64,000 nucleotides of DNA. Origin: Alphaproteobacteria bacterium (GTDB lineage: Bacteria > Pseudomonadota > Alphaproteobacteria > SHVV01). Location: positions 844,595-908,594 of the forward strand of contig CBDFHH010000004.1 in NCBI GenBank assembly GCA_965247665.1, given 5' to 3'. Positions 23,085 through 49,055 of this stretch are shown one piece after another (the stretch's first letter is position 1; each line of letters opens with the position of its first letter). The notes beneath the pieces were generated by a model. It did not search any database, was not told the origin of the DNA, and saw nothing but the letters and a program-made list of their open reading frames with translations. The position numbers were made by a program, and so were the translations under genes.

Positions 23085-23293
23085 TCTTCCCTCCCCGGTA
23101 GGTCTCGGAAGTCGACGGCGGAAGCTGCCCGCTGGCTCCGTGTGTAGCGGTGCCGCCACGGCGAATCAAGCGGCAACGGCTTGAGCTCGTGTACGGGCTC
23201 GCACCTGTCGTGCGCTCTGCTATTATCGCTGCTCGCGAAGGTTCGACATGATCCGCGCCGAACGCGAACAGGAACGCCCAATTGGAGACGGTG

Positions 23294-24004
23294 ATGGTCG
23301 ATTGGGAAAAGGAAACGCGCGAAGATTACAGGCGCAAAGGCCTCGCCGTAAGCTGCGGCTACGGCACCGGTCCGGCGCTTCTCGTGGTCGATTTCATCAA
23401 CGGTTTCACCGATCCGTCGACCCCATTGGGCGGCGATTTCTCAGCTCAAATCGGCGCCACCCAGGAATTGCTGTCGACGTTCCGCGACGCCGGGCTGCCG
23501 ATCGTCTTCACCACCATCGCCTACGAGTCGCACTACCGCGATGCCGGGATGTGGATCAAGAAAGTTCCCTCGCTGGAGATTCTCCGCAAAGGCACGCGCA
23601 TGGTCGAGGTCGACGATCGCATCCGCCCGCGCACCGACGAATATGTCCTTGAGAAGAAATTCGCCAGTTCATTCTTCAAGACCGATCTGGAGAGCTACCT
23701 CAAGGCCCGCGGCGTTGACACGGTGATCATGGTCGGCTGTACCACGAGCGGCTGCGTGCGCGCCTCCGCGATCGATTCGATCTCCTGCGGCTTCCACACC
23801 ATCGTCGTGGCCGAAGCGACCGGAGACAGAGCGCAGGGCCCGCATGAGGCCAATCTGTTCGATATCGAAGCCAAGTATGGTGACGTCGTCTCGTTGCGCG
23901 AGGCGACCGATTACATCAAATCCATCACCAGCGCCGGCGGCTACGCCCAGAAGGTGCAGGACGATTTCCATCGTTGGTGGAATCGACCGGCCGCCAGCGC
24001 TTGA
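23294..24004 (+). CDS. Isochorismatase-family cysteine hydrolase (N-carbamoylsarcosine amidase / CSHase-like), copy A.
   Basis: LLVVDFINGF, FTTIAYES, catalytic-Cys context VMVGCTTSGCVRASAIDS. ATG at 23294 preceded by GGAGACGGTG; the TTG at 23282 in the track is less likely. Confidence 0.85.
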   Translation: MVDWEKETREDYRRKGLAVSCGYGTGPALLVVDFINGFTDPSTPLGGDFSAQIGATQELLSTFRDAGLPIVFTTIAYESHYRDAGMWIKKVPSLEILRKGTRMVEVDDRIRPRTDEYVLEKKFASSFFKTDLESYLKARGVDTVIMVGCTTSGCVRASAIDSISCGFHTIVVAEATGDRAQGPHEANLFDIEAKYGDVVSLREATDYIKSITSAGGYAQKVQDDFHRWWNRPAASA

Positions 24005-24032: not shown

Positions 24033-24518
24033 ATGGCCGGCGACCGACGCCCTTCATTGTCTTCCGCGTTCGACGATATGCTCGAACGCAATTGGCAAGA
24101 GCTCGACGGTATGTACGCCGGTACCGCCGATAGGACAGGCCGTCGCGAGCCCCGGGCGCCGTCGTTACCGAGCGCCGATTTTCAAACCCCGTTGTCGTCG
24201 GAACGGCCGATCGTGCAGCAGCTCAACGAACGATTCGGCGACAAATGGCGCTACGAGATCACGGACCGTCAGCGCGATGGCGACGACGTGGTCGTGCTAT
24301 GCAAACTGACGCTGCCCGAAAAGAACGTCACCAAAGCGCAATTCGGGCTCGCCCGTATCGGCCGCGCCGGCGGTGGATCGGCAGTCCACGGCAGCGCCGG
24401 GGGCGTGTCGTTTTCGCTGGGCGCGAGCGAATCCGGTGCGCTGGCAGGCGATACCGAGAACGCGGCGTATGAACGTGCGACCGACGACGCCCTCGCCAAA
24501 TGCGCTGCGATGCTGTGA
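24033..24518 (+). CDS. Standalone small protein carrying the Rad52/Mgm101-like domain. This is copy 1 of the ~100-aa domain that is also found fused to both HyuB paralogs.
   Basis: PIVQQLNERFGDKWRYEI...DVVVLCKLTLPEKNVTKAQFGLARIG...(Gly-rich insertion)...AYERATDDALAKCAAML. Same pattern as the N-termini of the proteins at 28216 and 46943: xxNExFG..W-S..V...G.V.V.CKL...G....FG.A...A...ATDxALxKCAA. Confidence 0.5.
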   Translation: MAGDRRPSLSSAFDDMLERNWQELDGMYAGTADRTGRREPRAPSLPSADFQTPLSSERPIVQQLNERFGDKWRYEITDRQRDGDDVVVLCKLTLPEKNVTKAQFGLARIGRAGGGSAVHGSAGGVSFSLGASESGALAGDTENAAYERATDDALAKCAAML

Positions 24519-24561: not shown

Positions 24562-25017
24562 ATGCTGCGGCTAAATGAGCCGGCGCCACGCCTGCGCCTG
24601 CGCAATCAGTGCGGCATCGCCACCGGACTTACCGAATTGCACGGCCACATCGTGGTCATGTGGTGGCAGCGCACCTTCGAACATTCCATTGCCGAAATCA
24701 TCGCCAGGTCGTTTCGTGATCGTCACGCCGACCTTACGGCGCGAAACGCGACTATTCTCGGTATCAGCAGCGACCCCTCGGTGCGGATCGCTCGATTCCA
24801 CGAATCCCTCGGACTCCCTTTCGATCTGCTGAGCGATGCCACGGGTGAAGCCGCCGCGGCCTATGGAGCGGCGGATTGGTGGCGGGCCGGCCCCGACTTG
24901 CCGCTAACCTTCGTCATTGACGCCGGCGGGCTGATATGTGCCAGCCACCAAATCGACCGCGGACACGCGAATCATGTCGAGACGCTGCTGGCCGACGTCG
25001 CCCGCGCTGCAAATTGA
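24562..25017 (+). CDS. Peroxiredoxin (Bcp/AhpC-TSA)-like thioredoxin-fold protein lacking the peroxidatic cysteine (degenerate).
   Basis: Collinear with Bcp: APRLRLRNQCGIATGLTELHGHIVVMWW aligns to APDF.L.D..G..V.LSDF.GK.VVLYFYP, and ILGISSDPSVRIARFHESLGLPFDLLSD aligns to VLGVSVDS...KFAEK.GL.FPLLSD. The canonical TPGC is replaced by TFEHSI. Confidence 0.55.
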   Translation: MLRLNEPAPRLRLRNQCGIATGLTELHGHIVVMWWQRTFEHSIAEIIARSFRDRHADLTARNATILGISSDPSVRIARFHESLGLPFDLLSDATGEAAAAYGAADWWRAGPDLPLTFVIDAGGLICASHQIDRGHANHVETLLADVARAAN

Positions 25018-25185: not shown

Positions 25186-25695
25186 CTAGGACTTCCTCGG
25201 CGGCTGGCGTCGATACTGCCAGCCGTCGCGGAACGCGCGCACCACGTGGTGCAGCAGATAGAACAGGATCGCCAGGATCACCAGCAGGATGATCGATAGC
25301 AGGCGGTCACCGAACCCCGAATCGATGATGGCACCGCCGCTGATAAGATGCTCGCTGAGCATGACAACCGCCTGGAGCGTAGCGCCCGCGAACAGGATCA
25401 CCGCGATCAAGATCGCCACTTGCAGCGTCTCGAAAACCAGCGTTTCGACGTCGAGCTCGGTCACCGGGCGCAAGATGTTGCGGCGGAAGGTCTGCCAGTG
25501 GGCAATGAAGTAGCCGATGACTCCGACCAGCGACGCGAACCAGAAGATCACGTTGTCGCTGCGAATATGGCGGATTCCCTTCGACACATACTCTTCGAAC
25601 GGCTGGTAGAAATACAAGAATATCAACAGGATAATCAGACCCACCAGGAGGATCCAAAGGCGCGGCCGCTGCCAGCTGTCGGAATCTTGTGCCAT
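25186..25695 (-). CDS. Small 4-TM membrane protein, paralog 1 (unknown family; paralog of 42670-43155).
   Basis: Shares W..L..LVG.....L.FLYFYQPF...N.IFW.A...G.IG......ILLSAGATLQ.V....L..G.IDSGFG.RL...VIL with the second copy. Start uncertain; the internal ATG at 25695 was chosen. Confidence 0.5.
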   Translation of the reverse strand: MAQDSDSWQRPRLWILLVGLIILLIFLYFYQPFEEYVSKGIRHIRSDNVIFWFASLVGVIGYFIAHWQTFRRNILRPVTELDVETLVFETLQVAILIAVILFAGATLQAVVMLSEHLISGGAIIDSGFGDRLLSIILLVILAILFYLLHHVVRAFRDGWQYRRQPPRKS

Positions 25696-26148
25696 TCGTG
25701 GAGAACCCGAGGCGTACTGCGAATGCGGTCGGATCGTATACGACGGGGCAGCGGTTTCACAACCCGGGTATGGCATTTGAGAGATTGCGGATTGGCTGGG
25801 TGTCGATTCCGCCAAGTCGGTCTATTCGACGGAGGGGTTTATGGTGGAACGGTTTCGGGAGTGCTTGCCGAGTCGGATGATCTGGGTGCGGAAAATGCGC
25901 CGCGTTACGATCTTCGGGAGCTGGTGTTCATTGCCTTTTAGCCGGCTTGTGAGGCGGGCGGAGCTGCGTTGACATAGCTGAATTCGCGGCCGCCAAGGAG
26001 GATCGCGAAATCGGTCGAAAACCTGTTTAATTGCGTCTTCGGGCGCGCTACAAACGCCTGCTGTTCCGACCCGTTGGGTGATTTCCCGATGCCGTGGTCG
26101 GCGCACACTCCATCGGGGACGCCAAACAAGCGGCGAGGAGAAGGGCGT

Positions 26149-28206
26149 ATGGCGAGTCGCTTGGGGATCGACGTCGGGGGTACCTTCACCGATCTCCTGT
26201 TGTTCAACGAAGCGTCGCGGGAAATCCAGCTGCTCAAAACCCCCTCGACGCCCGAAGATCAGTCGGTGGGTATTCTCACCGGTGTGCGGAAGATCATTGC
26301 CCAGTCCGGGATCTCGGCCGGCGACATCCAGGCGCTGCTGCACGGCACGACCGTCTCGACCAACATCGTGCTCGAGGAGAAGGGCGCTAAGGTTGGCCTG
26401 CTTGTCACCGAGAATTTCGAGCAAATCCTGCACATGGCGCGGTCGCAGACTCCGGGACCGCTGGCCGGCTGGATCATCATGGAAAAGCCCGACCCGCTGG
26501 CCGACCTCGAGCTCACCCGGGGCATCGTCGAACGCATCGATGCGCGCGGCGAAATCGTCACGCCGATCGACGAAGCCGCGGCGCGCCAGTCGATCCGCGA
26601 GTTGATCGAACGCGGCGTCGAGTCGATTACCATCTCGCTGCTGCATTCCTACGCCAATCCGACCCACGAACGGCGCCTCAAAGCGCTGGTGGACGAGATC
26701 GGCCCCGAGGTGCCGGTATCGGTATCGTCGGAGATCCTGCCCGAATTCCGCGAGTATGAGCGCACGCTGGTGACGGTGATGAATGCCTATGTCGGTCCCA
26801 GCATGCGCCGCTACCTGAGCAACCTCGAAGACAAGCTCAAGGGCGTGGAGTTCGCGCCGCACGTCCATATCGTGCGCTCCGACGGGGGACTGATGAGCGT
26901 CCAGCGCGCGTCCGAATCGCCGGTCCATACAATGATGTCGGGACCGGCGGGCGGCGTGTCGGGAGCGGCATTCCTCGCCAATCTGGCCGGCCATCCCAAC
27001 GCCATTGGCTTCGACATGGGCGGCACATCGACCGACGTGTCCGTAATCCAGGACGGCAAGCCCAACATTTCGCGCCAGACCAGCCTCGGCTATTACCCGA
27101 TCAAGGTGCCCTCGGTGGAGGTGCACAGCGTCGGTGCCGGCGGCGGGTCGATCGCGCACGTGCCGATGACCGGGGCGCTACGGGTCGGCCCGGAGAGCGC
27201 CGGTGCGATGCCGGGTCCGGCAAGCTACGGACGCGGCGGCGACAAGCCGACGGTAACCGACGCCAACGTGGTGTTGGGGCGGTTGCTGCCCCACCTGCTG
27301 GGCGGCGAGATGATGCTCGACGTCAACGCCGCGGAAACCGCAGTGTCGCGTATCGGCGGAGCACTCGGCCTCGACGTCAACGCGGCGGCGCAAGGTATCC
27401 TCGACATCGTCAACGAGAACATGTTCGGGGCGTTGCGCCTGGTCACGGTGCAGAAGGGCCTCGACCCGCGCGACTTTGCCTTGGTTGCTTTCGGCGGTGC
27501 CGGGCCGCTGCACGGTAACGCCATCGCCATGCTGGCAGGCTGCTATCCCGTGATCGTGCCGCCCACACCAGGCGTGCTGTCGGCGCTTGGTTTCCTCTAT
27601 TCCGACGTCAAGAACGAATTCGCCCAGACCTATATCCGCAACATCGACGATGTCCGATCCGGCGACGTGAGCGAGGTGCTGTCCCGCCTTGGGCGCGAGG
27701 CGAAGACGTGGCTGCGCGAAGAGGGAATCGGCGAATCGAGCCAGGAATTGCGCTACGAAGCGGACGTGCGGTACTTTCGTCAGGGTTACGAATTTTCACT
27801 GGAGGTCAATCCCGAATCCGTTGGCAACGGGGGCATGCAGAACCTCGCCAGCCGCTTTGGCATCGCCCATGAACGCCTCTATGGCTTCAAGCTGGATGCG
27901 CCGGTGGAGCTGGTCAATCTGCGTGCGATTGGAACTGGAAACGTGATCAAGGTCGAGTTCCCCAAGTTCGAGAAAGAAAGCACCGACGCCAGAGGGGCGA
28001 TCGTCGGTCAGCATCGCACGTCGTTCGACGGCAATTTCGTGGCCGCCAGCGTCTACGACCGTGACCTGCTCAGGGCCGGCAATCAGGTTCCCGGCCCGGC
28101 GATCATCACCCAGAAGGATTCGACGACCGTGATCCATCCCGACCATGTCGGCGCGGTCGATGAGTATCTCAACATTCTTATCAACCCCGTAGGTGGACCG
28201 GCATAG
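26149..28206 (+). CDS. hyuA: Hydantoinase/oxoprolinase A subunit (HyuA; N-methylhydantoinase A-type ATPase of the ASKHA fold), copy 1.
   Basis: MASRLGIDVGGTFTDLLLF... (actin-like ATPase phosphate-1 motif), 685 aa. RBS GAGGAGAAGGG before the ATG at 26149; the upstream 25 codons in the track were rejected. Confidence 0.9.
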   Translation: MASRLGIDVGGTFTDLLLFNEASREIQLLKTPSTPEDQSVGILTGVRKIIAQSGISAGDIQALLHGTTVSTNIVLEEKGAKVGLLVTENFEQILHMARSQTPGPLAGWIIMEKPDPLADLELTRGIVERIDARGEIVTPIDEAAARQSIRELIERGVESITISLLHSYANPTHERRLKALVDEIGPEVPVSVSSEILPEFREYERTLVTVMNAYVGPSMRRYLSNLEDKLKGVEFAPHVHIVRSDGGLMSVQRASESPVHTMMSGPAGGVSGAAFLANLAGHPNAIGFDMGGTSTDVSVIQDGKPNISRQTSLGYYPIKVPSVEVHSVGAGGGSIAHVPMTGALRVGPESAGAMPGPASYGRGGDKPTVTDANVVLGRLLPHLLGGEMMLDVNAAETAVSRIGGALGLDVNAAAQGILDIVNENMFGALRLVTVQKGLDPRDFALVAFGGAGPLHGNAIAMLAGCYPVIVPPTPGVLSALGFLYSDVKNEFAQTYIRNIDDVRSGDVSEVLSRLGREAKTWLREEGIGESSQELRYEADVRYFRQGYEFSLEVNPESVGNGGMQNLASRFGIAHERLYGFKLDAPVELVNLRAIGTGNVIKVEFPKFEKESTDARGAIVGQHRTSFDGNFVAASVYDRDLLRAGNQVPGPAIITQKDSTTVIHPDHVGAVDEYLNILINPVGGPA

Positions 28207-28215
28207 GAGGGCTCC

Positions 28216-30510
28216 GTGGTCGATCTTCATCCCCACGCCAAATCGGTCTCTCTCGACGACCTGCTCAAGGCCAACAAGGATCAGTTCGACAAGATCTTTG
28301 CCCGCCAGATGGACGAGGTCGGTCTGGTCGAGGCGCCGCACCGCCCGGCCACCCAGGAGGATCTCGAATCGGCGAGCCTCAAGGCGCATACCCCGGCCGA
28401 TGACGTTAACGAGATGCTCACCGAACGGTTTGGCGTTGGCTGGTCTTCGGAAGTGGTCGAGCACAAGGTCGGAAGCGGTGTCGTGACCGTGTTGTGCAAG
28501 CTCACGGTCGACGGCGTCTCGAAGATGCAGTTCGGCTCGGCGCGGGCCAATGGCGACGAGGGCCGCGCCCTCCAGCGGGCGACCGACGAGGCGCTGACGA
28601 AATGCGCGGCGCAGTTCGGCAATGGCGGTAACGGGCACACGGCTGATGCACGCGGGACGCCGAGCCCGCAGACCGTGCCGAGATATGGCGAGGCGGAACC
28701 GGCGCCGGCGTCGGGGCGTGCACCGTCGCAGAAGCTCGACACAATTTCGTTGGACATTATCGAGAACGCCCTGCGCAACGCCCGCCATGAGATGGATGCG
28801 GTGCTATTCCGCTCCGCGATGTCGCCGGTGATTCGCGAGCAACACGATGAATTCCCGATGATTACCGATGCCAAAGGCCGCATGATCGTTGGCCAGTTCG
28901 GTTCGTATGTCGTCGAGATGCTCAAGGAGCAGAACATCTCCGTCGCGCCGGGCGACGTGATCCTCAACAACGATCCCTATCTGTGCGGCGGTTCGATAAG
29001 CCACATCAACGACTGGCTGGTGCTCGTGCCGATCTTCCACGAGGACGAACTGGTCGGCTTCAGCTCGATGTTCGGGCACATGATGGATTGCGGCGGCTCG
29101 GTGCCGTGCAGCATGCCCACCGCCGCCACGTCGATCTTCGCCGAGGGTATTCGCATCCCGCCGGTCAAGATCTACGACAAGGGCGAACTCAACCGGGCGG
29201 CGCTCAGCATCATCATGAACAACACGCGCACGCCGGAGATGAACTACAGCGATCTGATGGCGATCATCGCCGGCTGCCGCACCGGCGAGAAACGGGTGGT
29301 CGAGATTTGCGACCGCTTCGGCAAGGAGACTTACAAACAGGCCTGCGAAGCCCTGCTCGAGCGCACCAACCGGGCGATGCGCAAGCTGATCGTGCAGAAC
29401 CTCCCGGAAGAGCCGCAAACCTTCGAGGACGTCATCGACGACGATGGCTGCGGCAACGGCCCCTTCAAGCTGCGCATGACGCTGTGGCGCGAAGGGGAGC
29501 ACGCCTATTTCGACTGGACGGGAACCTCGCCGCAGGCGCCGGGACCGGTGAACTTCTACCTCAACGAGGGCATGTTCAAGATGTTCATCGGCGTCTACCT
29601 GATCATGATCTACGACCCGCAGATCCTGTTCAACGACGGCTTCTATGACTTGATCCATGTCACCATGCCGAAGGGATCGCTGCTGCACCCCGATTTTCCC
29701 GCTGCACTCGGCAACCGCACCCACGCGCTGTCGCGCCAGTTCGACGTGCTCGGCGGCGCGCTGTCGAAGAACGCGCCGCAGATGGCGACCGCGGCCGGCT
29801 ACGGCTCGAGCCCGCACTTCCTCTACTCGGGCGTCGACAAGAAGGGGCGGCCGTTCCAGCTGATGGAGATCCTGTTCGGCGGCATACCGGGCCGGCCGGT
29901 CGGCGACGGCATGGACGGTCATTCCTGGTGGCCGCTGTTTGAGAGCATTCCGACCGAGTATCTCGAGGTCTACTATCCGATGATCATCGAGAACTACGAG
30001 ACGATCTCCGACAGCGGCGGGCCCGGTAAACACCGTGGGGGCAACGGGGTCGAGAAGGTCTATCTCCTGCTCGAGGATGGCGAGATCTCGATCCAGGACG
30101 ACCGCCAGGAATCGCAGCCCTGGGGCATCCTCGGCGGCAAGCCCGGCCAGTGCTCGGACAAGTGGCTGGTTAGGACCGACGGCAATCGCGAGCCGCTCGG
30201 GTCCAAGATCGACAGCTTCAAGGTCAAGGCCGGAGAGCGCGTGATCTTCCGTACCGCCGGGGGCGGCGGCTGGGGCGACGCGCTGGAACGCGATGCGATG
30301 CGGGTGCGCAACGACGTGGCCCGCCATCTCATGTCGGCGGAAGCGGCGCGCGAGCATTATGGCGTGGTGCTCAAGGGCCAGGTGCAGGAGCTCGACATCG
30401 GCGCCACGCAGGAGCTGCGCGGGAGTTTGAAACGAAGCCGCCCGGCGCTGCCGCCGTACGATTTCGGCGAGCGTCGGACGGGAGGAAACGGGGTCGGCGC
30501 GACGGGCTGA
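28216..30510 (+). CDS. hyuB: Hydantoinase/oxoprolinase B subunit (HyuB) with an N-terminal ~140-aa extension containing a Rad52/Mgm101-like domain; copy 1.
   Basis: GTG at 28216 with RBS AGGAGG, 9 bp after the hyuA stop. Residues ~60-135 read NEMLTERFGVGWSSEVVEHKVGSGVVTVLCKLTVDGVSKMQFGSARANGDEGRALQRATDEALTKCAAQFG. A Gly/Pro/Ala linker follows, then the canonical HyuB core begins LDTISLDIIENALRNARHEMDAVLFRSAMSPVIREQHDEF.... There is no stop or plausible internal start between the domains. Confidence 0.88.
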   Translation: MVDLHPHAKSVSLDDLLKANKDQFDKIFARQMDEVGLVEAPHRPATQEDLESASLKAHTPADDVNEMLTERFGVGWSSEVVEHKVGSGVVTVLCKLTVDGVSKMQFGSARANGDEGRALQRATDEALTKCAAQFGNGGNGHTADARGTPSPQTVPRYGEAEPAPASGRAPSQKLDTISLDIIENALRNARHEMDAVLFRSAMSPVIREQHDEFPMITDAKGRMIVGQFGSYVVEMLKEQNISVAPGDVILNNDPYLCGGSISHINDWLVLVPIFHEDELVGFSSMFGHMMDCGGSVPCSMPTAATSIFAEGIRIPPVKIYDKGELNRAALSIIMNNTRTPEMNYSDLMAIIAGCRTGEKRVVEICDRFGKETYKQACEALLERTNRAMRKLIVQNLPEEPQTFEDVIDDDGCGNGPFKLRMTLWREGEHAYFDWTGTSPQAPGPVNFYLNEGMFKMFIGVYLIMIYDPQILFNDGFYDLIHVTMPKGSLLHPDFPAALGNRTHALSRQFDVLGGALSKNAPQMATAAGYGSSPHFLYSGVDKKGRPFQLMEILFGGIPGRPVGDGMDGHSWWPLFESIPTEYLEVYYPMIIENYETISDSGGPGKHRGGNGVEKVYLLLEDGEISIQDDRQESQPWGILGGKPGQCSDKWLVRTDGNREPLGSKIDSFKVKAGERVIFRTAGGGGWGDALERDAMRVRNDVARHLMSAEAAREHYGVVLKGQVQELDIGATQELRGSLKRSRPALPPYDFGERRTGGNGVGATG

Positions 30511-30586: not shown

Positions 30587-33415
30587 ATGCTCGGAACCGT
30601 CATTTCCGTAGTCATCACAGCGATTGTCGTCATCGCAATCGCCTACATCATCTCGATCTGGATCTACAAACGCTCGCCGTCGAACATGGCGTTCATCCGC
30701 ACCGGCTTTCTCGGTACGAAGGTATGCCTCGGACGCGGCGCGATCGTGCTGCCGGTTTTCCACGACGTCTCGTGGGTCTCGCTCGAGACGATTAAGCTGA
30801 TCGTCGGCCGCACCAACGACCGGGCGGTGCTGACCGCCGACAACATCCGGGTCGATATCACCGCCGAGCTCTACACTCATGTCGGCCACACCGAGGCGGA
30901 CATTCTCACCGCCAGCCGCAGCCTCGGCGAGAAAACCTTCGATGCCGAGGGTGTGCGCAACCTGCTTGAAGCCAAGGTGGTCAGCCAGGTCCGCAGCGAC
31001 GCTGCCACCAAAACGCTGAAGGAGCTACACGAAAACCGCGACGCCTTCGCCCGTTCCATCAAAGAGAAGGTGATCGAGAGCTTCCAGGCCAACGGTCTGA
31101 CGCTGGAAGAAGTCACCATCGTGTCGCTCGAGCAGTCGGGCAAGGAATATTTCAAGACCGACAACGTGTTCGACGCCGAGGGTCTCAAGGTCATCACCGA
31201 GATCACCTCGGACGCCAGGCGCAAGGTTCACGAGACCGAGAAGCGCACCGACGTCGCGATCCGCCAGAAGGACCTCGATACCCAGCTCGAAATGCTGATA
31301 ATCGAGAAGAACGAGGCGTTGGCCCGCGCCAGCCAGGACCGCGAAGTGTCCAACGAGCAGGCGCTGCAGCTCTCGGAGAAGCAGAAATACGTGCTCGATC
31401 AGCGCCGCGCGGTCGAGGAGCGCGAAATCGACAACGAGAAGGACCTCGAACGCCTGCGCACTGAGCGCGAAATAGCGATCACCGAAGAGGCGCAAAAGCG
31501 CGAGATCACCGAAATCCAAAAAAGCCTGGCCATCGAACAGGAGCAGCGCGACCGCGAAATCGCGCTGATAGCCAAAGCCAAGGAGGAGGAGCTCTCCAAC
31601 ATCGCCCGCAACCTCGAACTCGAAAAGGCCGAGAAAGACCGGCACATCGAGCTGGTTGGCAAGACGCGCGACGAGGAGCTCGCGGAGATCGATCGAGTGC
31701 TGGCTCGCGAGCGGGCGGAAAAGGAGCGCGAGATCGATCTGTCGGCCAAGGAGCGCGAGCGGCAGCAAACCGATATCGCCCGCCGGACGGAAGTGTTGAA
31801 GTCGGAAGAGCTGGCCCGCGATGAGCGCCACAAGGCGGCGGAGGGGGCTACGATCTTGGTCCGCAAGCGCAGCCTCGACACCAAGCTGGCGATACTGCAG
31901 GTCGAAAAGGACGAGGAATACGCCAAGCTGCTGCAGGATCAAGAGATCTCGAACGAACGCGCGCGCATTCTCAGCGACAAGCAGCGCTTCATCATCGACA
32001 AGCGCTGGGAGGTCGAGCACGAGGAGATCGTCAAGGAGCAAGCGCTCGAGCAGGCCAAAATCCAGAAGGACACGGCGATCATCGAGGAAGCGAAAACTCG
32101 CGAGGCCGCGGACATCCGCCGTACGCTCGCGCGCGAGCAGGAGGAGCGCGACCGCGAGATCGCGCTGCTGGCCAAGGCCGAGGAGGTCGACCGTGCGACC
32201 ACTGCGCGCAGCCGCAAGCGCGAGGAGAACGACCGCGACCGCCAGGTGGCGATCATCGCCAAGGACGAAGAGGTGCGCCGCGCCGAGGTCCGTCAGGCCC
32301 TGGCCGTCGAGCTCGAAGAGCGCGAGCGCGAGATCGCGCTGATCAACAAGGAATCCGAGCGCGAGCTGACCGATATCCAGCGCTATCTCGCGCGCGAGCA
32401 GGAGGAGCGCGACCGCGAGATCACCCTGGCCGCCAAGCTGCGCGAGCTCGAGGCAGCCGAAATCAACCGACTGGAAACCACGGCGGAGCGTGAAAAGGCC
32501 GAACACGGTGCGGAATCAGTGCGCATCGTCGCTGATGCCGAGCGCGAGAAGGAACTCGAGCGGATCAAGGCCGAGCGGGAAGCTACCGCGCGTCGCATCG
32601 ACGAGGAGAACAAGGCCGACATCACGCGCATGCACATGCTGACCCAGTCGGAAGCGCGCAAGCTGGCCTCCGAGCAGGAAGCCGAAGCAACGCTGACCCG
32701 CGCCAAGGCCAACAGCGAGGCGCAGAAGATCACCGCGGAAGGCATCGAGCGCGAGGCCGGCGCCGAGGGCCGCGCCGAGATGGAGATCGAAGCGCTACGC
32801 ACGCAAAACGTGCAGGGCCGGCTGGAGGCGGAGGCGGCGGGCATCGAATCCAAGGCCGATGCGCTCAAGCAGTACAACGAGTCGGCCGCGTTCCTGGAAC
32901 TGGCGCAACTGCACATCGCCGCCGAGCGCGACGTCCACATCGACCAGGCCAAAGCGATGGGCAACGCGCTCAGCCAGGCGCAGATCCGCATGTATGGCGG
33001 CGGCGGCAGCGGCGGCGACGGCACCGTCGATACCATACGCGGTATGTTCACGTCCGGATTCGCGCTCGGCGAAGTCCTGGAAGGCGTGGCCCAGTCGCTG
33101 CCCGAGGGACTGCGGAGCCGGTTCTCGGAAAACGGCATCCGCGGCTTGTTCGGCAAGCCCTACCGCGGCAACGAGCTGAAAGAAGCGGTCGTTGCCCTCG
33201 CCGCCCTGGTGCGAAACCAGATGCGGGCGCGCAAGGATCGCGAAATTCCCTTCGCGGAGGCTGTCGCCAAGCTCGAAGCGGCGGCCGGCGACGATACGGC
33301 GGCGGGCCGCGGCATCGCAATCCTCAGAAACTTTAATGAGAACGGCGTTTTCGACGATGTCCAGTTCGAACAGGTCTGGGCACTGCTTCAGGCAGCCGCC
33401 AAGAACGGTAACTAG
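30587..33415 (+). CDS. Flotillin/SPFH-family membrane scaffold protein (FloT/YqiK-like), unusually long at 942 aa because of an expanded coiled-coil repeat region.
   Basis: N-terminal TM helix (MLGTVISVVITAIVVIAIAYIISIWIY), SPFH domain (FIRTGFLGTKVCLGRGAIVLPVFHDVSWVSLETIKLIV...), then ~600 aa of E/R/A-rich repeats (REQEERDREIALLAKAEE; IEQEQRDREIALIAKAKEE; EEREREIALINKESE...). Strong RBS AAGGAGGAGGGG. Confidence 0.8.
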   Translation: MLGTVISVVITAIVVIAIAYIISIWIYKRSPSNMAFIRTGFLGTKVCLGRGAIVLPVFHDVSWVSLETIKLIVGRTNDRAVLTADNIRVDITAELYTHVGHTEADILTASRSLGEKTFDAEGVRNLLEAKVVSQVRSDAATKTLKELHENRDAFARSIKEKVIESFQANGLTLEEVTIVSLEQSGKEYFKTDNVFDAEGLKVITEITSDARRKVHETEKRTDVAIRQKDLDTQLEMLIIEKNEALARASQDREVSNEQALQLSEKQKYVLDQRRAVEEREIDNEKDLERLRTEREIAITEEAQKREITEIQKSLAIEQEQRDREIALIAKAKEEELSNIARNLELEKAEKDRHIELVGKTRDEELAEIDRVLARERAEKEREIDLSAKERERQQTDIARRTEVLKSEELARDERHKAAEGATILVRKRSLDTKLAILQVEKDEEYAKLLQDQEISNERARILSDKQRFIIDKRWEVEHEEIVKEQALEQAKIQKDTAIIEEAKTREAADIRRTLAREQEERDREIALLAKAEEVDRATTARSRKREENDRDRQVAIIAKDEEVRRAEVRQALAVELEEREREIALINKESERELTDIQRYLAREQEERDREITLAAKLRELEAAEINRLETTAEREKAEHGAESVRIVADAEREKELERIKAEREATARRIDEENKADITRMHMLTQSEARKLASEQEAEATLTRAKANSEAQKITAEGIEREAGAEGRAEMEIEALRTQNVQGRLEAEAAGIESKADALKQYNESAAFLELAQLHIAAERDVHIDQAKAMGNALSQAQIRMYGGGGSGGDGTVDTIRGMFTSGFALGEVLEGVAQSLPEGLRSRFSENGIRGLFGKPYRGNELKEAVVALAALVRNQMRARKDREIPFAEAVAKLEAAAGDDTAAGRGIAILRNFNENGVFDDVQFEQVWALLQAAAKNGN
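32131..32422 (+). repeat. Intragenic direct repeats inside the flotillin gene. For example, a 31-bp exact repeat GCGCGAGCAGGAGGAGCGCGACCGCGAGATC occurs at 32131 and 32392, 261 bp (87 codons) apart and in frame.
   Basis: Nucleotide-identical blocks encode the repeated peptide AREQEERDREI; similar degenerate copies occur throughout 31,300-32,500. Confidence 0.8.
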
Positions 33416-33531: not shown

Positions 33532-34641
33532 ATGCCGGATTACGACGTTGTCCTCGCTCACGTTGACAAGACGTTCGAGGGTGATGTCCGCGCGGTAATC
33601 GACTTCAATGCGGAAATCGAGCATGGCGAGTTCGTGGCCATGCTCGGTCCCAGCGGTTGCGGCAAGACCACCACGCTGCGCATGATCGGCGGCCTCGAGG
33701 AGGTCACCGAAGGCAAGATCTACCTTGCCGGCGAGGATGTTACCGACCTGCCGCCGTCGCACCGCAACACCTCGATGATGTTCCAGAGCTTCGCGCTGTT
33801 TCCGCATCGCACGGTGTACCAGAACGTCGAGTTCAGCCTCAAAATGAAGGGCCAGTCGAAGGACGAGCGCGCGCGCCAAGTGTGGCAGATGCTCGAACTG
33901 GTCGGGCTCGACCCGCTGTCAAACCGCCATCCGCGCGATCTTTCCGGCGGTCAGCAGCAACGTGTGGCGCTGGCGCGAGCGCTGATTAGCAAACCGGTAT
34001 TGCTCTTGCTCGACGAGCCGCTCGGTGCGCTCGACTACAATCTACGTGCGACGATGATGGTCGAGCTCAAGAAGATCCAGCGCGAGACCGGCATTACCTT
34101 CATCATGGTCACTCACTCGCAGCAGGAAGCGATGTCGTTGGCCGACAAGGTGATTGTGATGAGCGACGCGCTGATCCAGCAGACCGGCACCTCGCGCGAA
34201 ATCTACGAAACGCCGCGCACCAAATTCGTCGCCGAGTTCATCGGCAACAACAACATCTTCAACGGCACCATCAAGTCGCGCAGCGGTTCGATCGTGTTCG
34301 TCGAATCCGAGACCAATCTGTTCTACGTGCGGGTGCCGGAATATATGCGGCAGGTCACGATCGGCAGCGCAGCGCACTTCTCGGTGCGCGCCGACCTCGT
34401 GCATACCGGCGACCACCCGGATATGGCCAACAAGGTGGTCGGGTCGTACATCACCACCGAATTCATGGGCTCGCTCGAAACCGACGTGTTCGAGATCGAA
34501 CCCGGGTTGTTCATCCATGTCGAGCAGCACCGCTCGGCCACGGATCGTTCCTACGAGATGGGCGAGCGCGAGGTGGTGTGCTGGCCTGCCGACGCCGGCA
34601 TCCTACTCGATCAGGTAACCGCCGAGTCCGTTTCCAGCTAG
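33532..34641 (+). CDS. ABC transporter ATP-binding protein, PotA/spermidine-putrescine-type (with C-terminal TOBE-like domain).
   Basis: Walker A GPSGCGKTT, LSGGQQQRVALARAL, Walker B LLLLDEPLGALD; 369 aa. It is convergent with the permease/SBP genes of the same transporter type on the minus strand. Confidence 0.85.
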   Translation: MPDYDVVLAHVDKTFEGDVRAVIDFNAEIEHGEFVAMLGPSGCGKTTTLRMIGGLEEVTEGKIYLAGEDVTDLPPSHRNTSMMFQSFALFPHRTVYQNVEFSLKMKGQSKDERARQVWQMLELVGLDPLSNRHPRDLSGGQQQRVALARALISKPVLLLLDEPLGALDYNLRATMMVELKKIQRETGITFIMVTHSQQEAMSLADKVIVMSDALIQQTGTSREIYETPRTKFVAEFIGNNNIFNGTIKSRSGSIVFVESETNLFYVRVPEYMRQVTIGSAAHFSVRADLVHTGDHPDMANKVVGSYITTEFMGSLETDVFEIEPGLFIHVEQHRSATDRSYEMGEREVVCWPADAGILLDQVTAESVSS

Positions 34642-34935
34642 CGCCTTCTCTACCTAAAAATATCGCTTCAGCACTACCGCGCCGCTGGGTTCCGTATCAC
34701 CGGCGGCGAAGACGAGGGTCGGCGTGCGCGATCCGCACCATTCCAACAACGCGTCGACCGCTCCCGCTTTGGCGTCCAACTCGGCGACATGGCATTCCTG
34801 AATGCCGGCCGGCGTTCAGGCCGATGGCCGTACCATTGTGTAGGTCCGGCTCGGCGCGGGTCCTGCGGCCGAAGCATTGCAAGCGCGCTTCGGCCTTATC
34901 GTGCGTGGCTCGGCCCGACCCAGTGCGGGCCGCGG

Positions 34936-35622
34936 TCAGCGGCGCACATATTGCGTGGCGCCGAACAGCACCGACCAGCTCTGCTCAGTGAACTTCGGCG
35001 GTTTGTCCTTGGTCTTTTCCATGTCCTTGGCGACTGCGGATCGTGCCGCGATGACGTCGAACCACCGCACCACGTTGGGGAACTCGTTGATATCCTGGCC
35101 TTGCCGCTCGTAGAGCCGGCACCAGGGGAAGATCGCCATGTCGGCGATCGAATAATCGCCCGCGACATACTCCCGGTCGGCAAGCCGGCGGTCGAGCACG
35201 CCGTAGAGGCGCCCGGCCTCGTTGGTGTAGCGGTCCATCGCATATTCGATGCGCTCGGGCGCGTAGGCGTTGAAGTGGTGCGACTGGCCCAGCATCGGCC
35301 CGAAGCCACCCATCTGCCAGAACAGCCACTGCATCGCCTCGACGCGGGCGCGCGGCTCGGTTGGCAGGAATTGACCGGTCTTCTCGGCGAGATAGACCAG
35401 GATCGCGCCGGACTCGAACACCGAGATCGGTTTGCCGTCGGGCCCGTCATGATCGACGATCGCCGGGATCTTGTTGTTGGGGCTGATAGCAAGAAACTCC
35501 GCTTCGAACTGATCGCCGCGGCCGATATCGACCCAAGCCAATCGGTAGGGCAGGCCCGTCTCCTCGAGCATGATGTGGATCTTCTGTCCGTTCGGCGTCG
35601 CCGCCGTATAGAGGTCGATCAT
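34936..35622 (-). CDS. Glutathione S-transferase (bacterial Nu/YghU-YfcG-like class).
   Basis: Start at the ATG at 35622 (MIDLYTAATPNGQKIHIMLEETGLPY...). Has a thioredoxin-like N-domain and a helical C-domain. The 148-codon upstream extension in the track was rejected as a high-GC artefact. Confidence 0.8.
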   Translation of the reverse strand: MIDLYTAATPNGQKIHIMLEETGLPYRLAWVDIGRGDQFEAEFLAISPNNKIPAIVDHDGPDGKPISVFESGAILVYLAEKTGQFLPTEPRARVEAMQWLFWQMGGFGPMLGQSHHFNAYAPERIEYAMDRYTNEAGRLYGVLDRRLADREYVAGDYSIADMAIFPWCRLYERQGQDINEFPNVVRWFDVIAARSAVAKDMEKTKDKPPKFTEQSWSVLFGATQYVRR

Positions 35623-35666
35623 CGGTACCTTCGCTTGCTTGCTGGACGGAGCAACATGGACCGCCG

Positions 35667-36494: not shown

Positions 36495-36501
36495 CTTTCC
36501 C

Positions 36502-37485: not shown

Positions 37486-37615
37486 GTGGCGACACGAAAC
37501 GCGTCACGGATGCGTACGACCCGTACTCTAAACAAAGCCGGTCGGCCTGAAAACGACCAGACCGGGTCTCCCCGAAGGGAGCCCGGCCTGGTGAACAATA
37601 TCGGTAAGCTCTGAC

Positions 37616-41304: not shown

Positions 41305-41355
41305 CCCTGTGCGCCAACCAACACGGCCTATCGGCAATAACTATATGGTCACGCC

Positions 41356-44669: not shown

Positions 44670-46943
44670 TCAGCCGCCGCGTAAGCGCCGGGTTTCCTGC
44701 TCGTTGACGGTTTCGGTCTCAGGATTGATGACCACACCATAGACCTCGCTCGCCTTCTCGAGCGTGACGAAGTCGTCGAGCCAGTCGCTCAGCACCATCT
44801 CGGGATCGCGCTTCTTGGGATCGCCGTAACCGCCGCCGGAGGGACCGACGATGCGGACCATGTCCCCGGCCTTCATCTTGGCGCCCGTCACCTTCGACGG
44901 CCAGTTCTCTTCATCGGGCTGGCCGGGATTCTTGATGAGCTGTCCGACCAGGCCGCTCTCGCCACCGAACACGCCGACCGGCGCCTCCTTGTGGCGGTCC
45001 GCTTCGCACGAGATGAAGCCGTCTACGAGGAAGCGGTTCTCGCGCACGATGCCAATGCCGCCGCGCCACTGTCCGGCGGCGGCCGGGTCGAGCCGAAGCT
45101 CGTAACGCTCGTTGTGCAGCGGGTAGTGCATGTCGAGCTCTTCGACCGGATTGTTGCGGGTATTGGCCATCAGATTGTCGACGCTGTCCATAGCGTCCTT
45201 GCCGTAACGGCCACCGTAACTGCCTTCGTCGACCTCGAGATACATCCAGTATTGCTGCTTCTCCTCGAGGAAGCCGCTGTAGGAGATAAAATAGAGCGAG
45301 GCCGAATTGCCGCCGGTCGCTTTTTCGGGGATCACCGGCGCCAGCGCCTGGATCGTGCAGTCGATCACCCTTTGGATCTGGGCGAAGCGCGAGAAGCAGG
45401 CGCGCGGGAAGTTGGGGTTGAAGATCGTGCCTTTCGGCGCGGTGACCTTGACCGGGCGGAAGATGCCTTCGTTCTGCGGCACGAATTCCTCGAGCTCGGC
45501 CTCGTCGAGCAGCAGCGTTCGCACGATGTAGTAGCAGGCGACCTTGCAGCTGCCCTCGAACGGTACGTTGAAGCCGGTTTCCACCTCCATCGCCGAACCG
45601 GTCAGATCGATCTCGATGTCGCTGCCCTTGACCCGGACGGTGACGTTGACCTTGAGCGGCACGTCACGGTTCTTGCCGTCGTCGTCGAGCCAGCCCTCGG
45701 CGTGGTACTCGCCGTCCGGGACCTTCTCGATCTCGCTTCGCAGCATGCGCTCGGAGTAGTCCATCCAGTAATTGGCCGAGCCCATCACCGTTTCGACGCC
45801 GTACTTCTCGACCAACGCGAGGAAGCGTTCGCGTCCCTTCTCGACCGAGGCGATCATCGCGTCGATGTCGGACGTGTCCATATCGGGCGTCCGCACATTT
45901 TCGATGATCATCTGCCACATCTCTTCGTTGCGGACGCCGCGGTCGTAGAGCTTGACCGCATTGAACAGCTTGGCTTCGGCAAACACGTCGACCACGTCGA
46001 CATTGATGCCGGGCGCGGCGCCGCCGAGGTCGAGCAGGTGAGCGGTGTTGGCCGAGAAGCCGATCAGCTCGCCGTTATAGACGATCGGCACCATCACCCC
46101 GAGATCGGGCGTGTGCGACGAACCGTGGTAGGGGTGGTTGTGTATGATGACGTCGCCGTCGTTGATTTTGCCTTCGAGGCGCTTGAGCACCCCGCGGATA
46201 TAGAAAGGCAGCGAGCCGATATGCATCGGCGTGCTTTCGCTTTCGCACAGTTCGTTGCCGTTCATGTCGAAGATGCCGCAGCCGAGATCTTCGGACTCGC
46301 GGATGATGCTCGAGTAGGACATGCGGTAGAGGACGTGTGCCATCTCCTTGGCGATGGCGTTGAAGGCGCCGCCGATTACCCGCAGCGTCACCGGATCGAG
46401 GTGGTCGTATGCGAAATCGGTGATTAGTCGTTTCGACGCAGTCGGTCGCGGCAGCGCCGCCGGTTCGGCGCTCGGCCTGGGCAGTCGCTCGGTAGCTGGT
46501 TGCGGTTCCGGCGCGCGCAACTGGGCCCGGGCCGGTTCCGGCGCCGCGATCTGCGCCCCCCGATCGGGGCCGACCGGAGGCGGCAGTTGGCGCTGCGGTT
46601 GGTCGGACCGGGCTTCGATGCGCGGCGCGCCCGGTTCCGGCGCAGGCATCGACTGGACCTCGTCGGGGAACCGGCCGTTGAGCAGCGTCGTCGCACATTT
46701 GCGCAGGCTGTCGTTCGATGCCCGCTCGAGCTGTTCGCCGAGCGACAAGGTGCCGTTGCCGTTGGCGTGACCCGTATCGCGGACCTCGGAGCCATCGGCC
46801 TTGAGGGCACCGGTTACTTCGACGCCACCGCCATTGCGACCATGGTCGATGATGTCGAAACTCCACGCATCGCCATAGGCGTCACGCAGTGCGGTGATCA
46901 CCGCGGCGATCGGACCGTTGCCGGAGCTGAGATGGGTATCCAT
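44670..46943 (-). CDS. hyuB: HyuB (hydantoinase/oxoprolinase B) with N-terminal Rad52/Mgm101-like domain and a long Pro/Ala-rich linker; copy 2.
   Basis: ATG at 46943, 18 bp after the hyuA-2 stop. N-terminus reads ITALRDAYGDAWSFDIIDHGRNGGGVEVTGALKADGSEVRDTGHANGNGTLSLGEQLERASNDSLRKCATTLL, followed by ~80 aa of P/A/E-rich linker and then the HyuB core LDPVTLRVIGGAFNAIAKEMAHVLYRMSYSSIIRES... About 35% identical to copy 1 in the core by eye, so not a recent duplication. Confidence 0.88.
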   Translation of the reverse strand: MDTHLSSGNGPIAAVITALRDAYGDAWSFDIIDHGRNGGGVEVTGALKADGSEVRDTGHANGNGTLSLGEQLERASNDSLRKCATTLLNGRFPDEVQSMPAPEPGAPRIEARSDQPQRQLPPPVGPDRGAQIAAPEPARAQLRAPEPQPATERLPRPSAEPAALPRPTASKRLITDFAYDHLDPVTLRVIGGAFNAIAKEMAHVLYRMSYSSIIRESEDLGCGIFDMNGNELCESESTPMHIGSLPFYIRGVLKRLEGKINDGDVIIHNHPYHGSSHTPDLGVMVPIVYNGELIGFSANTAHLLDLGGAAPGINVDVVDVFAEAKLFNAVKLYDRGVRNEEMWQMIIENVRTPDMDTSDIDAMIASVEKGRERFLALVEKYGVETVMGSANYWMDYSERMLRSEIEKVPDGEYHAEGWLDDDGKNRDVPLKVNVTVRVKGSDIEIDLTGSAMEVETGFNVPFEGSCKVACYYIVRTLLLDEAELEEFVPQNEGIFRPVKVTAPKGTIFNPNFPRACFSRFAQIQRVIDCTIQALAPVIPEKATGGNSASLYFISYSGFLEEKQQYWMYLEVDEGSYGGRYGKDAMDSVDNLMANTRNNPVEELDMHYPLHNERYELRLDPAAAGQWRGGIGIVRENRFLVDGFISCEADRHKEAPVGVFGGESGLVGQLIKNPGQPDEENWPSKVTGAKMKAGDMVRIVGPSGGGYGDPKKRDPEMVLSDWLDDFVTLEKASEVYGVVINPETETVNEQETRRLRGG

Positions 46944-46961: not shown

Positions 46962-49055
46962 CTACAGCTTGATCAGAATGTTGGCGTATTGATCGACCTC
47001 GGCGGTGAGGTCGGGTAGGACGAACGTGGTAGTGTCGGGTTGTTCGATGATGGCGGGCCCCCGGATGACGTTGCCGCTCCGGAGTTTGGCGCGATCATAG
47101 TGCGGCGTCGAGATGGATTTCGGTTTGCCTGTGCCGTCGTCGAAAATCACGTCACGATGCCCGTTCACCGCGTCGGCGTTCGATTCGCCGCCGCCCTGCT
47201 CGAGCAGCTTGGTGCGCAGCTCGGGAATGCGGCCGACGCCCACGACGCGAACATTGACCAGCTCGATGTCTTTCTCGTCGAAACGCTTGCCGTATTCGCG
47301 CTGGTGGACCTGGTGGAAGCCCTCGATCAGCTGTTTGACAAAGCTGTCGTCGATGGGACCGTCCGGCGCGTCGACGCGCAGCTCGTAGCCCTGGCCCTGG
47401 TAGCGGCATTCGGCAATACGGATGAACAACCGATCGGCCGCGCCGATGCGATCCTCTTCCAGCTGCTTGGCGGAGAGGCCCTGGAGATAGGCATAGTCCT
47501 CGTCGATCTTGGCCAGGTCCGGCTTGCTCAGGAGTTGCAGTTGGGTGCGGCTGTGGTCGTAGGACAGGTCGGTAGCCAGCAGGCCGAGGGCCGAGGTCAA
47601 GCCGGGATTGGGCGGCACGATCACCATCGGGATCGTCAGTTCGGCCGCCACCTCGCAGGCCTGCAGCGGACCGGCGCCGCCGAACGCGACCAGCGCAAAC
47701 TCGCGCGGATCGTAACCCTTGCGTACGCTGTTCATCTCGATCGACTGGATCATCCCGTGGTTGAGGATCTTGATACCGCCGAGAGCCGCCTCCTGGACGG
47801 TCATGCCGAGCGGCCGGCACAAATGCTCCTCGATCGCCCGCTTCGATAGATCGGCCCGCAGCTCCATGCGGCCGCCGAGGAAGTTGTCCGGATTGAGGCG
47901 GCCGAGCACGACGTTGCAATCGGTCGAGGTCGGCAGCTCGCCGCCCCGGCCATAGCAGCACGGGCCCGGTACTGCGCCGGCGCTCTTGGGGCCGACCCGG
48001 AAAACGCCACCGCGGTCGACATAGGCGATCGAGCCGCCGCCGGCGCCGATCGTATCAATGTCGACCATCGGCACCATCGCCTGGTAGTCGCCGATCTTGG
48101 TGTCGAGCAGATGTTTCATCGACATCTTGCCGTTCGGCGCAACGCCGATGTCGGCCGAGGTGCCGCCCACGTCGAGCGTGACGATGTTCTTGTAACCGGA
48201 CTGGCTGCTCGCCCAGATACCGCCGATCAGGCCGGCAACCGGACCCGACATCAGCAGCGTGACCGGCCGTTCCACCGCGCCCTGCGGCGTGGCGACGCCG
48301 CCGTTGGTCTGCATCAGGTGCAGCTCGGCGCGGAACTGCTTGTCCTTCATCGCCTGGTCGAGGTTGGTGATGTAGTTGGCTGTCTTGGGTCCGACATATG
48401 AGTTGAGGCAGGTGGTGCTGAAGCGCTCATATTCGCGGTATTGCGGGATCACGCGATGGCTGAGCGACAGATACACGTCGGGCCATTCCTTGCGGACGAT
48501 CTCGCCGGCGCGAATCTCGTGTTCCGGATTGAGAAAGGCGAACATAAAGCACACCGAGATCGCGTCGACATTGGCCTTGCGCAGCTTGCGCACCGCTTCG
48601 ACCACGTCTTCTTCGTTGAGCGGGGTCTGGATCTCTCCGTCGGGAGCGATGATGCGCTCGCGAATCGGCAACCGGTAGCGGCGCCGCACCAACGGGTATT
48701 TCTGCCATGGCAGGTCTTGCTGCAAGCTGAAATTGTAGGGCCGTTTGTGGCGGGCGATGTGCAGGATGTCGCGATAACCCTCGGTGGTGAGCAGGCCGGC
48801 GCGGGCACCGTTGTGCTCGAGAACGATGTTGGTGGCGATCGTGGTGCCGTGAAAGAACTGTTCGACCTCGGCGGGCGACACGCCAGCCATCTTGCACAGC
48901 TCCAGGGCTCCATCCATCGTGCCGATGGACGGATCCTGCGGTGTCGTCGGCACTTTGTTGGTGTGGATCGCGCCCGACGAATCGTCGGTCAGAACCAGAT
49001 CGGTGAACGTTCCCCCGATATCGACGCCTAATCGAATCACGCTCAAGCCCCCCAA
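46962..49055 (-). CDS. hyuA: HyuA (hydantoinase/oxoprolinase A), copy 2.
   Basis: VIRLGVDIGGTFTDLVLTDD...; 697 aa. Directly follows isochorismatase-family gene B (stop at 49056). Confidence 0.9.
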   Translation of the reverse strand: MGGLSVIRLGVDIGGTFTDLVLTDDSSGAIHTNKVPTTPQDPSIGTMDGALELCKMAGVSPAEVEQFFHGTTIATNIVLEHNGARAGLLTTEGYRDILHIARHKRPYNFSLQQDLPWQKYPLVRRRYRLPIRERIIAPDGEIQTPLNEEDVVEAVRKLRKANVDAISVCFMFAFLNPEHEIRAGEIVRKEWPDVYLSLSHRVIPQYREYERFSTTCLNSYVGPKTANYITNLDQAMKDKQFRAELHLMQTNGGVATPQGAVERPVTLLMSGPVAGLIGGIWASSQSGYKNIVTLDVGGTSADIGVAPNGKMSMKHLLDTKIGDYQAMVPMVDIDTIGAGGGSIAYVDRGGVFRVGPKSAGAVPGPCCYGRGGELPTSTDCNVVLGRLNPDNFLGGRMELRADLSKRAIEEHLCRPLGMTVQEAALGGIKILNHGMIQSIEMNSVRKGYDPREFALVAFGGAGPLQACEVAAELTIPMVIVPPNPGLTSALGLLATDLSYDHSRTQLQLLSKPDLAKIDEDYAYLQGLSAKQLEEDRIGAADRLFIRIAECRYQGQGYELRVDAPDGPIDDSFVKQLIEGFHQVHQREYGKRFDEKDIELVNVRVVGVGRIPELRTKLLEQGGGESNADAVNGHRDVIFDDGTGKPKSISTPHYDRAKLRSGNVIRGPAIIEQPDTTTFVLPDLTAEVDQYANILIKL

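Follow-up and report, generated by a model that had tools for sequence, protein, structure and literature searches.

A predicted Rad52-like domain at the N-terminus of two HyuB paralogues, and its possible role in enzyme assembly

Background

This report concerns a small domain of roughly 80 residues that occurs three times in a stretch of 64,000 nucleotides of alphaproteobacterial DNA (hereafter the window; positions 844,595 to 908,594, forward strand, of contig CBDFHH010000004.1, GenBank assembly GCA_965247665.1). Two copies stand at the N-termini of HyuB-1 and HyuB-2, which are the B subunits of two HyuAB pairs; the third is a protein of its own. A preceding reading of the window from its letters alone (the sequence-only reading) had proposed that the domain is Rad52/Mgm101-like, that it has lost DNA binding and that its fusion to HyuB is old. 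Here we present a computational follow-up of these proposals. Outside DNA-annealing rings, which serve recombination in eukaryotes, phages and a few bacteria and archaea, the Rad52 fold is hardly known.

Results

The three copies of the domain

The claim that three proteins of the window share one domain is borne out. The open reading frames (ORFs) were found at their coordinates with the peptides quoted for them, and in a MAFFT alignment about 90 residues of the standalone protein, HyuB-1 and HyuB-2 form a common core with 15-17 invariant columns and the pattern L..G..W...V.V..L...G.A...RA..L.KCA. The standalone protein (161 aa, 24033..24518, plus strand), which we call A-type, consists of a conserved N-terminal helix (FDDMLERN..ELD), a disordered spacer and the core at residues 59-160.

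HyuB-1 (764 aa) occupies 28216-30510 on the plus strand and starts with GTG. A conserved helix, SVSLDDLLKANKDQFDKIF, is seen at residues of about 10-34 (28243..28317) both in the alignment and in the structural model; its invariant columns in the alignment are D14, D15, L16, L17, N20, K21, Q23, F24, D25 and F28. The helix is shared with the standalone protein and is absent from HyuB-2. The Rad52-like core follows at residues 58-136 (28387..28623), with a predicted helix at 61-72, strands at 76-86, 89-98 and 101-110 and a second helix at 115-135; then come a low-complexity Gly/Pro/Ala linker at residues 137-174 (28624..28737) and the catalytic Hydantoinase_B core at residues 175-764 (28738..30510; Pfam PF02538, E 1.3e-150, profile positions 1-518 of 519). 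HyuB-2 (757 aa, 44670-46943, minus strand, ATG start) opens directly with a core of what we call the C-type at residues 1-90 (46674..46943), no conserved helix preceding it in the alignments, and continues with a Pro/Ala/Arg/Glu-rich linker at residues 91-182 (46398..46673) and the catalytic core at residues 183-757 (44670..46397; PF02538, E 6e-155, profile positions 1-519 of 519). The two proteins are collinear in BLASTP from the N-terminal domain through the catalytic core, at 29% identity.

Since the Pfam Hydantoinase_B match begins only at residue 175 of HyuB-1 (175-688) and at residue 183 of HyuB-2 (183-709), each protein has an N-terminal extension of about 175 residues, made up of the domain and a Pro/Ala/Gly-rich linker. 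Both cores cover the full profile and are paired with HyuA, as in the known family (Hydantoinase B, oxoprolinase, CapB, acetone carboxylase alpha); unlike here, its characterised members are about 580 aa long and begin directly with the catalytic fold, and no description of one with a domain added at the N-terminus is known. The CapB subunit consists of residues 1-580 and no more, and two copies of it make up the central B-B dimer of an ABBA heterotetramer (PMC8453981).

The partner subunits are HyuA-1 (26149..28206, plus strand; NCBIfam CapA-like, E 1e-159), whose true start is likely to be MASRLGIDVGG as called in a near-identical contig (L002), and HyuA-2 (46962..49055, minus strand; CapA-like, E 9.7e-173), and they are 39% identical to one another. 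Both HyuAB pairs are nearest to caprolactamase CapA/CapB in NCBIfam. The CapB scores of 242 and 250 bits, and those of 131 and 112 bits for ApcD, are far below the equivalog cut-offs of 1000 or 1500, so that they indicate superfamily membership only and no substrate can be taken from the likeness to CapAB. The Asp-His-Asp-His metal motif of CapB can be recognised by eye in the two HyuB cores (..HDEF.., SHxxD, and GHMMD or AHLLD).

The fusion and its conservation

The sequence-only reading had described each HyuB as translated from a strong ribosome-binding site directly after hyuA. This is correct for HyuB-1, where the TAG stop of hyuA-1 overlaps an AGGAGG box (28205..28218, plus strand, read from the sequence) located 5 nt ahead of the GTG at 28216, and where the start aligns with the Met of homologues (e.g., MADINPHAKS); for HyuB-2 the box is a weaker GGGGA, 7 nt ahead of the ATG. 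The distance from the end of hyuA to the start of hyuB is 10 nt in the first pair and 18 nt in the second. The linkers had further been described as having neither stop nor internal start. Neither contains a stop codon; a few in-frame GTG, TTG or ATG codons do occur in them, none with a Shine-Dalgarno sequence upstream.

The recurrence of the HyuB-1-type fusion was followed in a scan of one genome per GTDB species with a B-type alignment as the query. It gave 80 loci (L003-L082), all from metagenome-assembled genomes of Alphaproteobacteria (including Rhodospirillaceae and Xanthobacteraceae), SAR324 and Acidiferrobacteraceae; the sources are marine water columns, soils and peat, with no cultured isolate among them. 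A single unbroken ORF of 742-791 codons encodes both the domain and the HyuB core in about 72 of these 80 species representatives. The fusion is interrupted in eight cases (L001 included), all of them nanopore (MFD-type) contigs with further frame breaks, and all Illumina assemblies are in frame across the fusion. The linkers, 30-60 residues long with a median of 39, vary in sequence and are in frame in all 72 loci, and the B-type sequences are strongly conserved, with 44 invariant columns. In the L002 contig, which is 99.4% identical to the window, the domain and the linker are free of indels; two extra G bases lie within hyuB, and the exact HyuB-1 protein is not on record.

The HyuB-2-type fusion recurs too: the domain is present in about 50 of the 120 homologue clusters listed. 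About 30 orthologue clusters of 700-810 aa match the family hidden Markov model (HMM) in the N-terminal region with E values of 1e-7 to 1e-11, relatives of 660-680 aa carry the domain on a short linker, and canonical HyuB homologues of about 585 aa lack it. The recurrence of both types and the intact ORFs support the earlier view that the fusion is old and maintained and not an assembly artefact; the fusion of the domain to HyuB is real and ancient. Some HyuB-2 relatives of 1115-1119 aa (P0398, P0400-P0402, P0404 and P0413) contain, in this order, the Rad52-like domain, HyuB and an Amidase domain (PF01425), an architecture that joins the ring-opening step with a downstream amidase in one protein.

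The public annotation of the locus presents difficulties of its own. Our initial search of protein databases returned only short proteins of 58-189 aa, namely standalone relatives and apparently separate ORFs of the HyuB-1 type, and the possibility that a separate ORF of 160-189 aa is the usual state of the HyuB-1-type domain was considered and rejected. At their tails (...TRSRSI, ...STRFRSI) these ORFs read the HyuB start LDTVSLDL in a shifted frame, and the contigs also split hyuA and cobW; in L001 both are split, and the HyuB frame runs upstream of the stop of the small ORF in another frame. Gene calls for the locus are often wrong (L001, L002, L022, L025, L038, L070, L074 and L075; proteins P0010-P0095). 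Nanopore indels in the GC-rich linker divide the fusion into an ORF of about 180 aa with a junk tail, and the L002 annotation has a 228-aa antisense ORF across the domain, at the equivalent of window positions 28281-28970 on the minus strand.

Predicted fold and relation to Rad52

Two structural models were considered: an AlphaFold2 model of HyuB-1 residues 1-140 built on a 27-sequence alignment, and an AlphaFold model of the standalone protein, which belongs to a different subfamily, built on 107 sequences. In the former the N-terminal helix (residues 13-34) is predicted with low to moderate confidence and is followed by a disordered stretch and a confident core (block-mean pLDDT of 82-95); the core pLDDT is above 90 in both models. 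The core consists of a helix, three strands and a helix in each, the standalone protein having an additional hairpin between the third strand and the final helix. Both models therefore contain the beta-beta-beta-alpha unit of the Rad52 superfamily, i.e., a three-stranded antiparallel sheet crossed by a helix. The AlphaFold and Foldseek check proposed earlier returned RAD52 as the best match of the predicted fold: the nine best Foldseek matches in the PDB are all human RAD52 (E 3.9e-5 to 3.5e-4), and those to double-stranded RNA-binding domains (dsRBD) and RNase III begin at 1e-3. At the level of the models, the fold is strongly indicated to be Rad52-like.

The signal in sequence profiles is weak and reproducible. 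Rad52_Rad22 (PF04098) is the most frequent weak Pfam match, found for 7 of 79 diverse members of the family (best E 0.0029); HyuB-1 itself reaches E 0.011 and 16.1 bits against a cut-off of 20.3 bits. The Pfam search suggested in the sequence-only reading names the family proposed there most often, always below the threshold. Among the PHROGs, phrog_37405 (unknown function) is matched with E 5.8e-4 and an Erf-like single-strand annealing protein (SSAP) with E 0.052. When the family was compared by hhalign with 31 aligned Rad52 N-terminal domains obtained in a search with human RAD52, the match was collinear across the whole core, with P values of 1.7e-4 (local) and 1.2e-5 (global); the plain local mode aligned the first helix and a strand only, and the collinear match is visible in the low-MAC and global modes. 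In the opposite direction, the family HMM scores above 5 bits for 53 of 78 Rad52 N-terminal domains and for none of the reversed or shuffled controls.

The domain is also widespread. An exhaustive HMMER search found 728 members among representatives at 50% identity, mostly standalone proteins of 140-200 aa, and all belong to uncultured Alphaproteobacteria, SAR324 and Acidiferrobacteraceae. No model covers the domain in Pfam and NCBIfam scans. In the library searched, full-text queries that combined Rad52 with hydantoinase, oxoprolinase, caprolactamase or acetone carboxylase brought up no paper in which Rad52 occurs, and a large survey of structures in the Rad52 superfamily says nothing of fusions to enzymes (PMC11783212). 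The view that a Rad52-like-hydantoinase architecture had not been described agrees with these searches, and the domain likely represents a previously undescribed family, a non-annealase, enzyme-tethered branch of the Rad52-like fold.

Features of DNA binding

The annealing domain of Rad52, Rad22, Rad59 and Mgm101 (PF04098; PDB 5jrb, 8g3g, 9yi6) shares its core fold with the new domain, which differs in lacking the C-terminal stem helices, as well as the N-terminal beta-hairpin, and in having shorter strands. In human RAD52 the hairpin carries the ssDNA-contact residues R55 and Y65. The region ahead of the first core helix is helical or disordered in both of our models, and the extra hairpin of the standalone protein sits after strand 3, unlike the N-terminal one of Rad52.

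The basic ssDNA-binding groove (R55, Y65, K152, R153 and R156 in human RAD52) is kept at R153 only. In the hhalign register the K152 position is mostly Ala or Thr, R153 is Lys or Arg in 45 of 79 members, A154 is Cys in 78 of 79, across all three subtypes, and R156 is a mixture of Glu, Arg and Ala. It had been claimed that the groove Lys is kept and the arginines are replaced by Cys or Ala; a Lys is indeed retained, but it aligns with R153 and not with K152, and the Cys aligns with A154. The new domain is acidic: the window copies have a pI of 4.9-5.3 and a net charge of -2 to -7, compared with Rad52 N-terminal domains, whose median pI is 8.7. Nearly all of the near-invariant positions belong to the core: a Trp, two Gly and three Ala spaced i+4, with the Cys on the same stripe.

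Since the hairpin and most of the basic groove residues are lost and the domain is acidic, DNA binding is most likely gone, and the suggestion of its loss made in the sequence-only reading is plausible. The domain further differs from the Rad52 group in being fused to, or encoded beside, catabolic enzymes. Unlike the Erf, Sak, Sak3, Redbeta and RecT SSAPs, it lacks the N-terminal hairpin and was not found in viral contigs, two scans of which gave neither copies nor relatives of it. It is not a bona fide annealase, considering the missing hairpin, the replaced groove residues, the acidity and a context that is catabolic and in no case that of a phage.

The gene island

HyuA is present in 81 of the 82 loci, and the context is catabolic in all of them, with no phage, recombination, exonuclease or SSB genes seen among the neighbours. 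The recurring order of the island is HyuB-1 and HyuA-1, a small membrane protein, CobW, a 106-aa ORF, a PuuE-like polysaccharide deacetylase, an isochorismatase-family hydrolase, the standalone copy and an AhpC/TSA-like gene. HyuA-2 and HyuB-2 follow the island directly in several metagenome contigs. In the window the halves of the island are separated by an ABC importer and an old-yellow-enzyme (OYE) reductase. We regard the island as a conserved, apparently unstudied enzyme system that is common in marine and soil metagenomes.

Directly 5' of the standalone copy lies an isochorismatase-family cysteine hydrolase (23282..24004, plus strand; RutB/BiuH-like in NCBIfam). It is found upstream of the A-type gene wherever upstream sequence is present (12 of 15 loci), except in L083 and L084, which gave no match. 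The window has three such hydrolases, weakly RutB/BiuH-like, alongside the HyuAB pairs (23282-24004, 49056-49787 and 49821-50555). Creatinine degradation pairs an N-methylhydantoinase with N-carbamoylsarcosine amidase, and the set of three echoes that logic. The AhpC/TSA-family protein (24562-25017, plus strand), 3' of the standalone gene, occupies the same place in L083, L085, L088, L089, L095 and L078/L080; by eye its usual peroxidatic Cys motif is replaced (..QRTFEHSIAE..), so that it may not be a peroxidase. The 106-aa ORF (21682-22002, minus strand), situated between the deacetylase and CobW, starts with MCSLCGVLGG and has no Pfam or NCBIfam match; genes of 105-111 aa hold the same position in L002, L083, L085 and L086.

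A Band7/SPFH gene lies directly 3' of HyuB-1 in the window and in 73 of 82 loci. Its product in the window (942 aa, 30587-33415, plus strand) has an N-terminal SPFH/Band7 domain followed by very long, coiled-coil-like repeats rich in Glu, Arg and Lys. A flotillin-like protein encoded together with a soluble amidohydrolase is unusual; no relevant paper was found in a literature search pairing hydantoinase with SPFH or flotillin. Each HyuAB cluster is also flanked by one of two paralogous small membrane proteins (25186-25815 and 42670-43155, both minus strand) that share the motif LIFLYFYQPF and have no Pfam match; the first is kept upstream of hyuA-1 in 74 of 82 loci.

The region between the HyuAB clusters (33532-42543) encodes the ABC importer, with an ATPase at 33532-34641, two permeases at 35667-37485 and an SBP_bac_8 protein, and an NADH:flavin oxidoreductase of the OYE family. 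A 965-aa ORF at 37616-40513 matches the solute-binding protein only at residues 616-873, so that its start is probably over-extended.

Discussion

We tentatively propose that the domain is a degenerate relative of the Rad52-type annealing core, reused as a tethered assembly module in HyuAB enzymes; we would not go as far as to call this complete reading probable. The domain has kept the helix, the three-stranded antiparallel sheet and the crossing helix and has lost the hairpin and most of the basic groove residues. Its place is the very N-terminus of the B subunit, the metal-containing one, in two paralogous HyuAB pairs (CapAB-like, presumed ATP-dependent cyclic-amide hydrolases), where a flexible Pro/Ala/Gly linker of 30-100 residues joins it to HyuB, and it may act as a protein-protein assembly module. 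The three copies might bind one another in the manner of Rad52-fold proteins, or all attach to a shared partner, and the two HyuAB heterotetramers, possibly with neighbouring hydrolases too, could then work as one complex. The suggestion of a tethered assembly or interaction module, and not of a part of the catalytic machinery, follows from the extreme N-terminal place, the variable disordered linker, the free-standing copy in the island and the conservation of structural residues only. Of the roles considered for the domain, assembly or interaction is the most likely one. It is tempting to go further and to propose that the three modules co-assemble into a Rad52-type hetero-oligomeric ring or hub gathering both HyuAB into a membrane-associated metabolon, a hub in which the Band7 (flotillin-like) protein and the small membrane protein encoded in most loci examined could also take part; we consider this unlikely.

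Several observations weigh against the proposal. The superfamily is defined by the sheet and crossing helix together with the N-terminal beta-hairpin (PMC11783212), and in neither of our models is there a strand ahead of the first core helix. All profile matches to Rad52 or Erf are below the curated thresholds, the hhalign probability is only 49% (local) and 60% (global), and neither a single sequence nor either of two profiles found a meaningful match among the sequences of the PDB. The dsRBD, S5 and HPF domains match the same helix-three-strand-helix fold at only 1.5-2 Z units lower. The elements beyond the core that help Rad52 to form a ring are absent from the domain, and a pure scaffold role leaves unexplained the Cys conserved in 78 of 79 members; positioned on the i+4 stripe of the alanines, it may simply be a packing residue. 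The designation Rad52/Mgm101-like, as first proposed, is hence supported by the predicted fold and by the weak, reproducible sequence signal, and is weakened by the subthreshold profiles and the missing hairpin. We believe that homology to Rad52 rather than convergence is likely, not proven.

Convergence is the content of the strongest alternative: a generic dsRBD-like helix-three-strand-helix module may have arrived independently at the shape of the Rad52 core and have a protein-protein or structural role. The closeness of the dsRBD, S5 and HPF matches leaves room for it, and we presume it to be somewhat unlikely. The dsRBD, the N-terminal domain of ribosomal S5 and HPF, similar as their folds are, ranked below Rad52 in every search. 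Profiles of the dsrm type gave essentially no matches (DSRM_2 only, in 2 of 79 members, E 0.19 or weaker), and the new domain, unlike a dsRBD, is acidic and lacks basic RNA-binding patches.

It may also be asked whether the domain is an allosteric module that binds a small molecule, comparable to the beta-beta-beta-alpha units of the regulatory domain of LeuA or citramalate synthase, and pairs across the HyuB dimer to adjust activity to a metabolite. This is rather improbable, as its structural and profile scores are under those for Rad52, the LeuA_dimer matches span only about 20 residues, and hydrophobic or small core residues make up nearly all of the near-invariant positions; the long disordered linker and the standalone paralogue suit recruitment better.

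A Cys-based swinging arm or carrier, or a redox- or metal-handling module, brought to the active sites by the Pro/Ala linker would account for a Cys kept in all three subtypes, and Pro/Ala-rich tethers with an alternation of standalone and fused forms are typical of carrier domains; the CobW metallochaperone and the AhpC/TSA-like gene are, moreover, conserved neighbours. The gamma subunit of acetone carboxylase and the biotinyl and lipoyl swinging-arm domains are small modules that are free or Pro/Ala-tethered in an ATP-dependent multi-subunit enzyme system. The analogy is one of architecture only, the fold being unrelated and a motif for attachment of a prosthetic group being absent, and no known carrier domain has such a fold. 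Placed halfway along the crossing helix, on the face of the three near-invariant alanines, the Cys is probably buried against the sheet, and the neighbouring AhpC-like protein seems by eye to lack the peroxidatic Cys motif. We consider a carrier role quite improbable.

That the domain still binds ssDNA or RNA, and thereby lends HyuB a moonlighting or autoregulatory function, is very improbable. The fold family (Rad52, dsRBD, S5) is overwhelmingly nucleic-acid-binding, and the basic residue at R153 is retained in over half of the members; however, the negative charge of the window copies, the absent R55/Y65 hairpin, the unconserved K152 and R156 and the purely catabolic context without phage or recombination neighbours all argue against it. 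Finally, an artefactual origin of the extension, through non-coding read-through, mis-assembly or the mistaken joining of a small separate gene to hyuB, is essentially excluded, since the separate ORFs of at most 189 aa as which public gene callers mostly list the domain end in frame-shifted HyuB starts and come from nanopore assemblies in which hyuA and cobW are split too, and since, the antisense call in one near-identical contig notwithstanding, a strongly conserved domain shares one frame with HyuB in about 72 of 80 genomes although the linkers vary.

Conclusions

Gene callers often break or miss the domain, and a family model would improve the annotation of many HyuB genes. The system to which it belongs comprises two HyuAB paralogues, cysteine hydrolases, a PuuE-like deacetylase, CobW, a flotillin-like protein and membrane proteins. 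A large family with the core of the Rad52 fold but without its DNA-binding parts would show that this fold has been reused outside nucleic-acid metabolism. If the hub proposed above is real, it would be the first annealase ring to serve as a non-nucleic-acid scaffold for a catabolic pathway.

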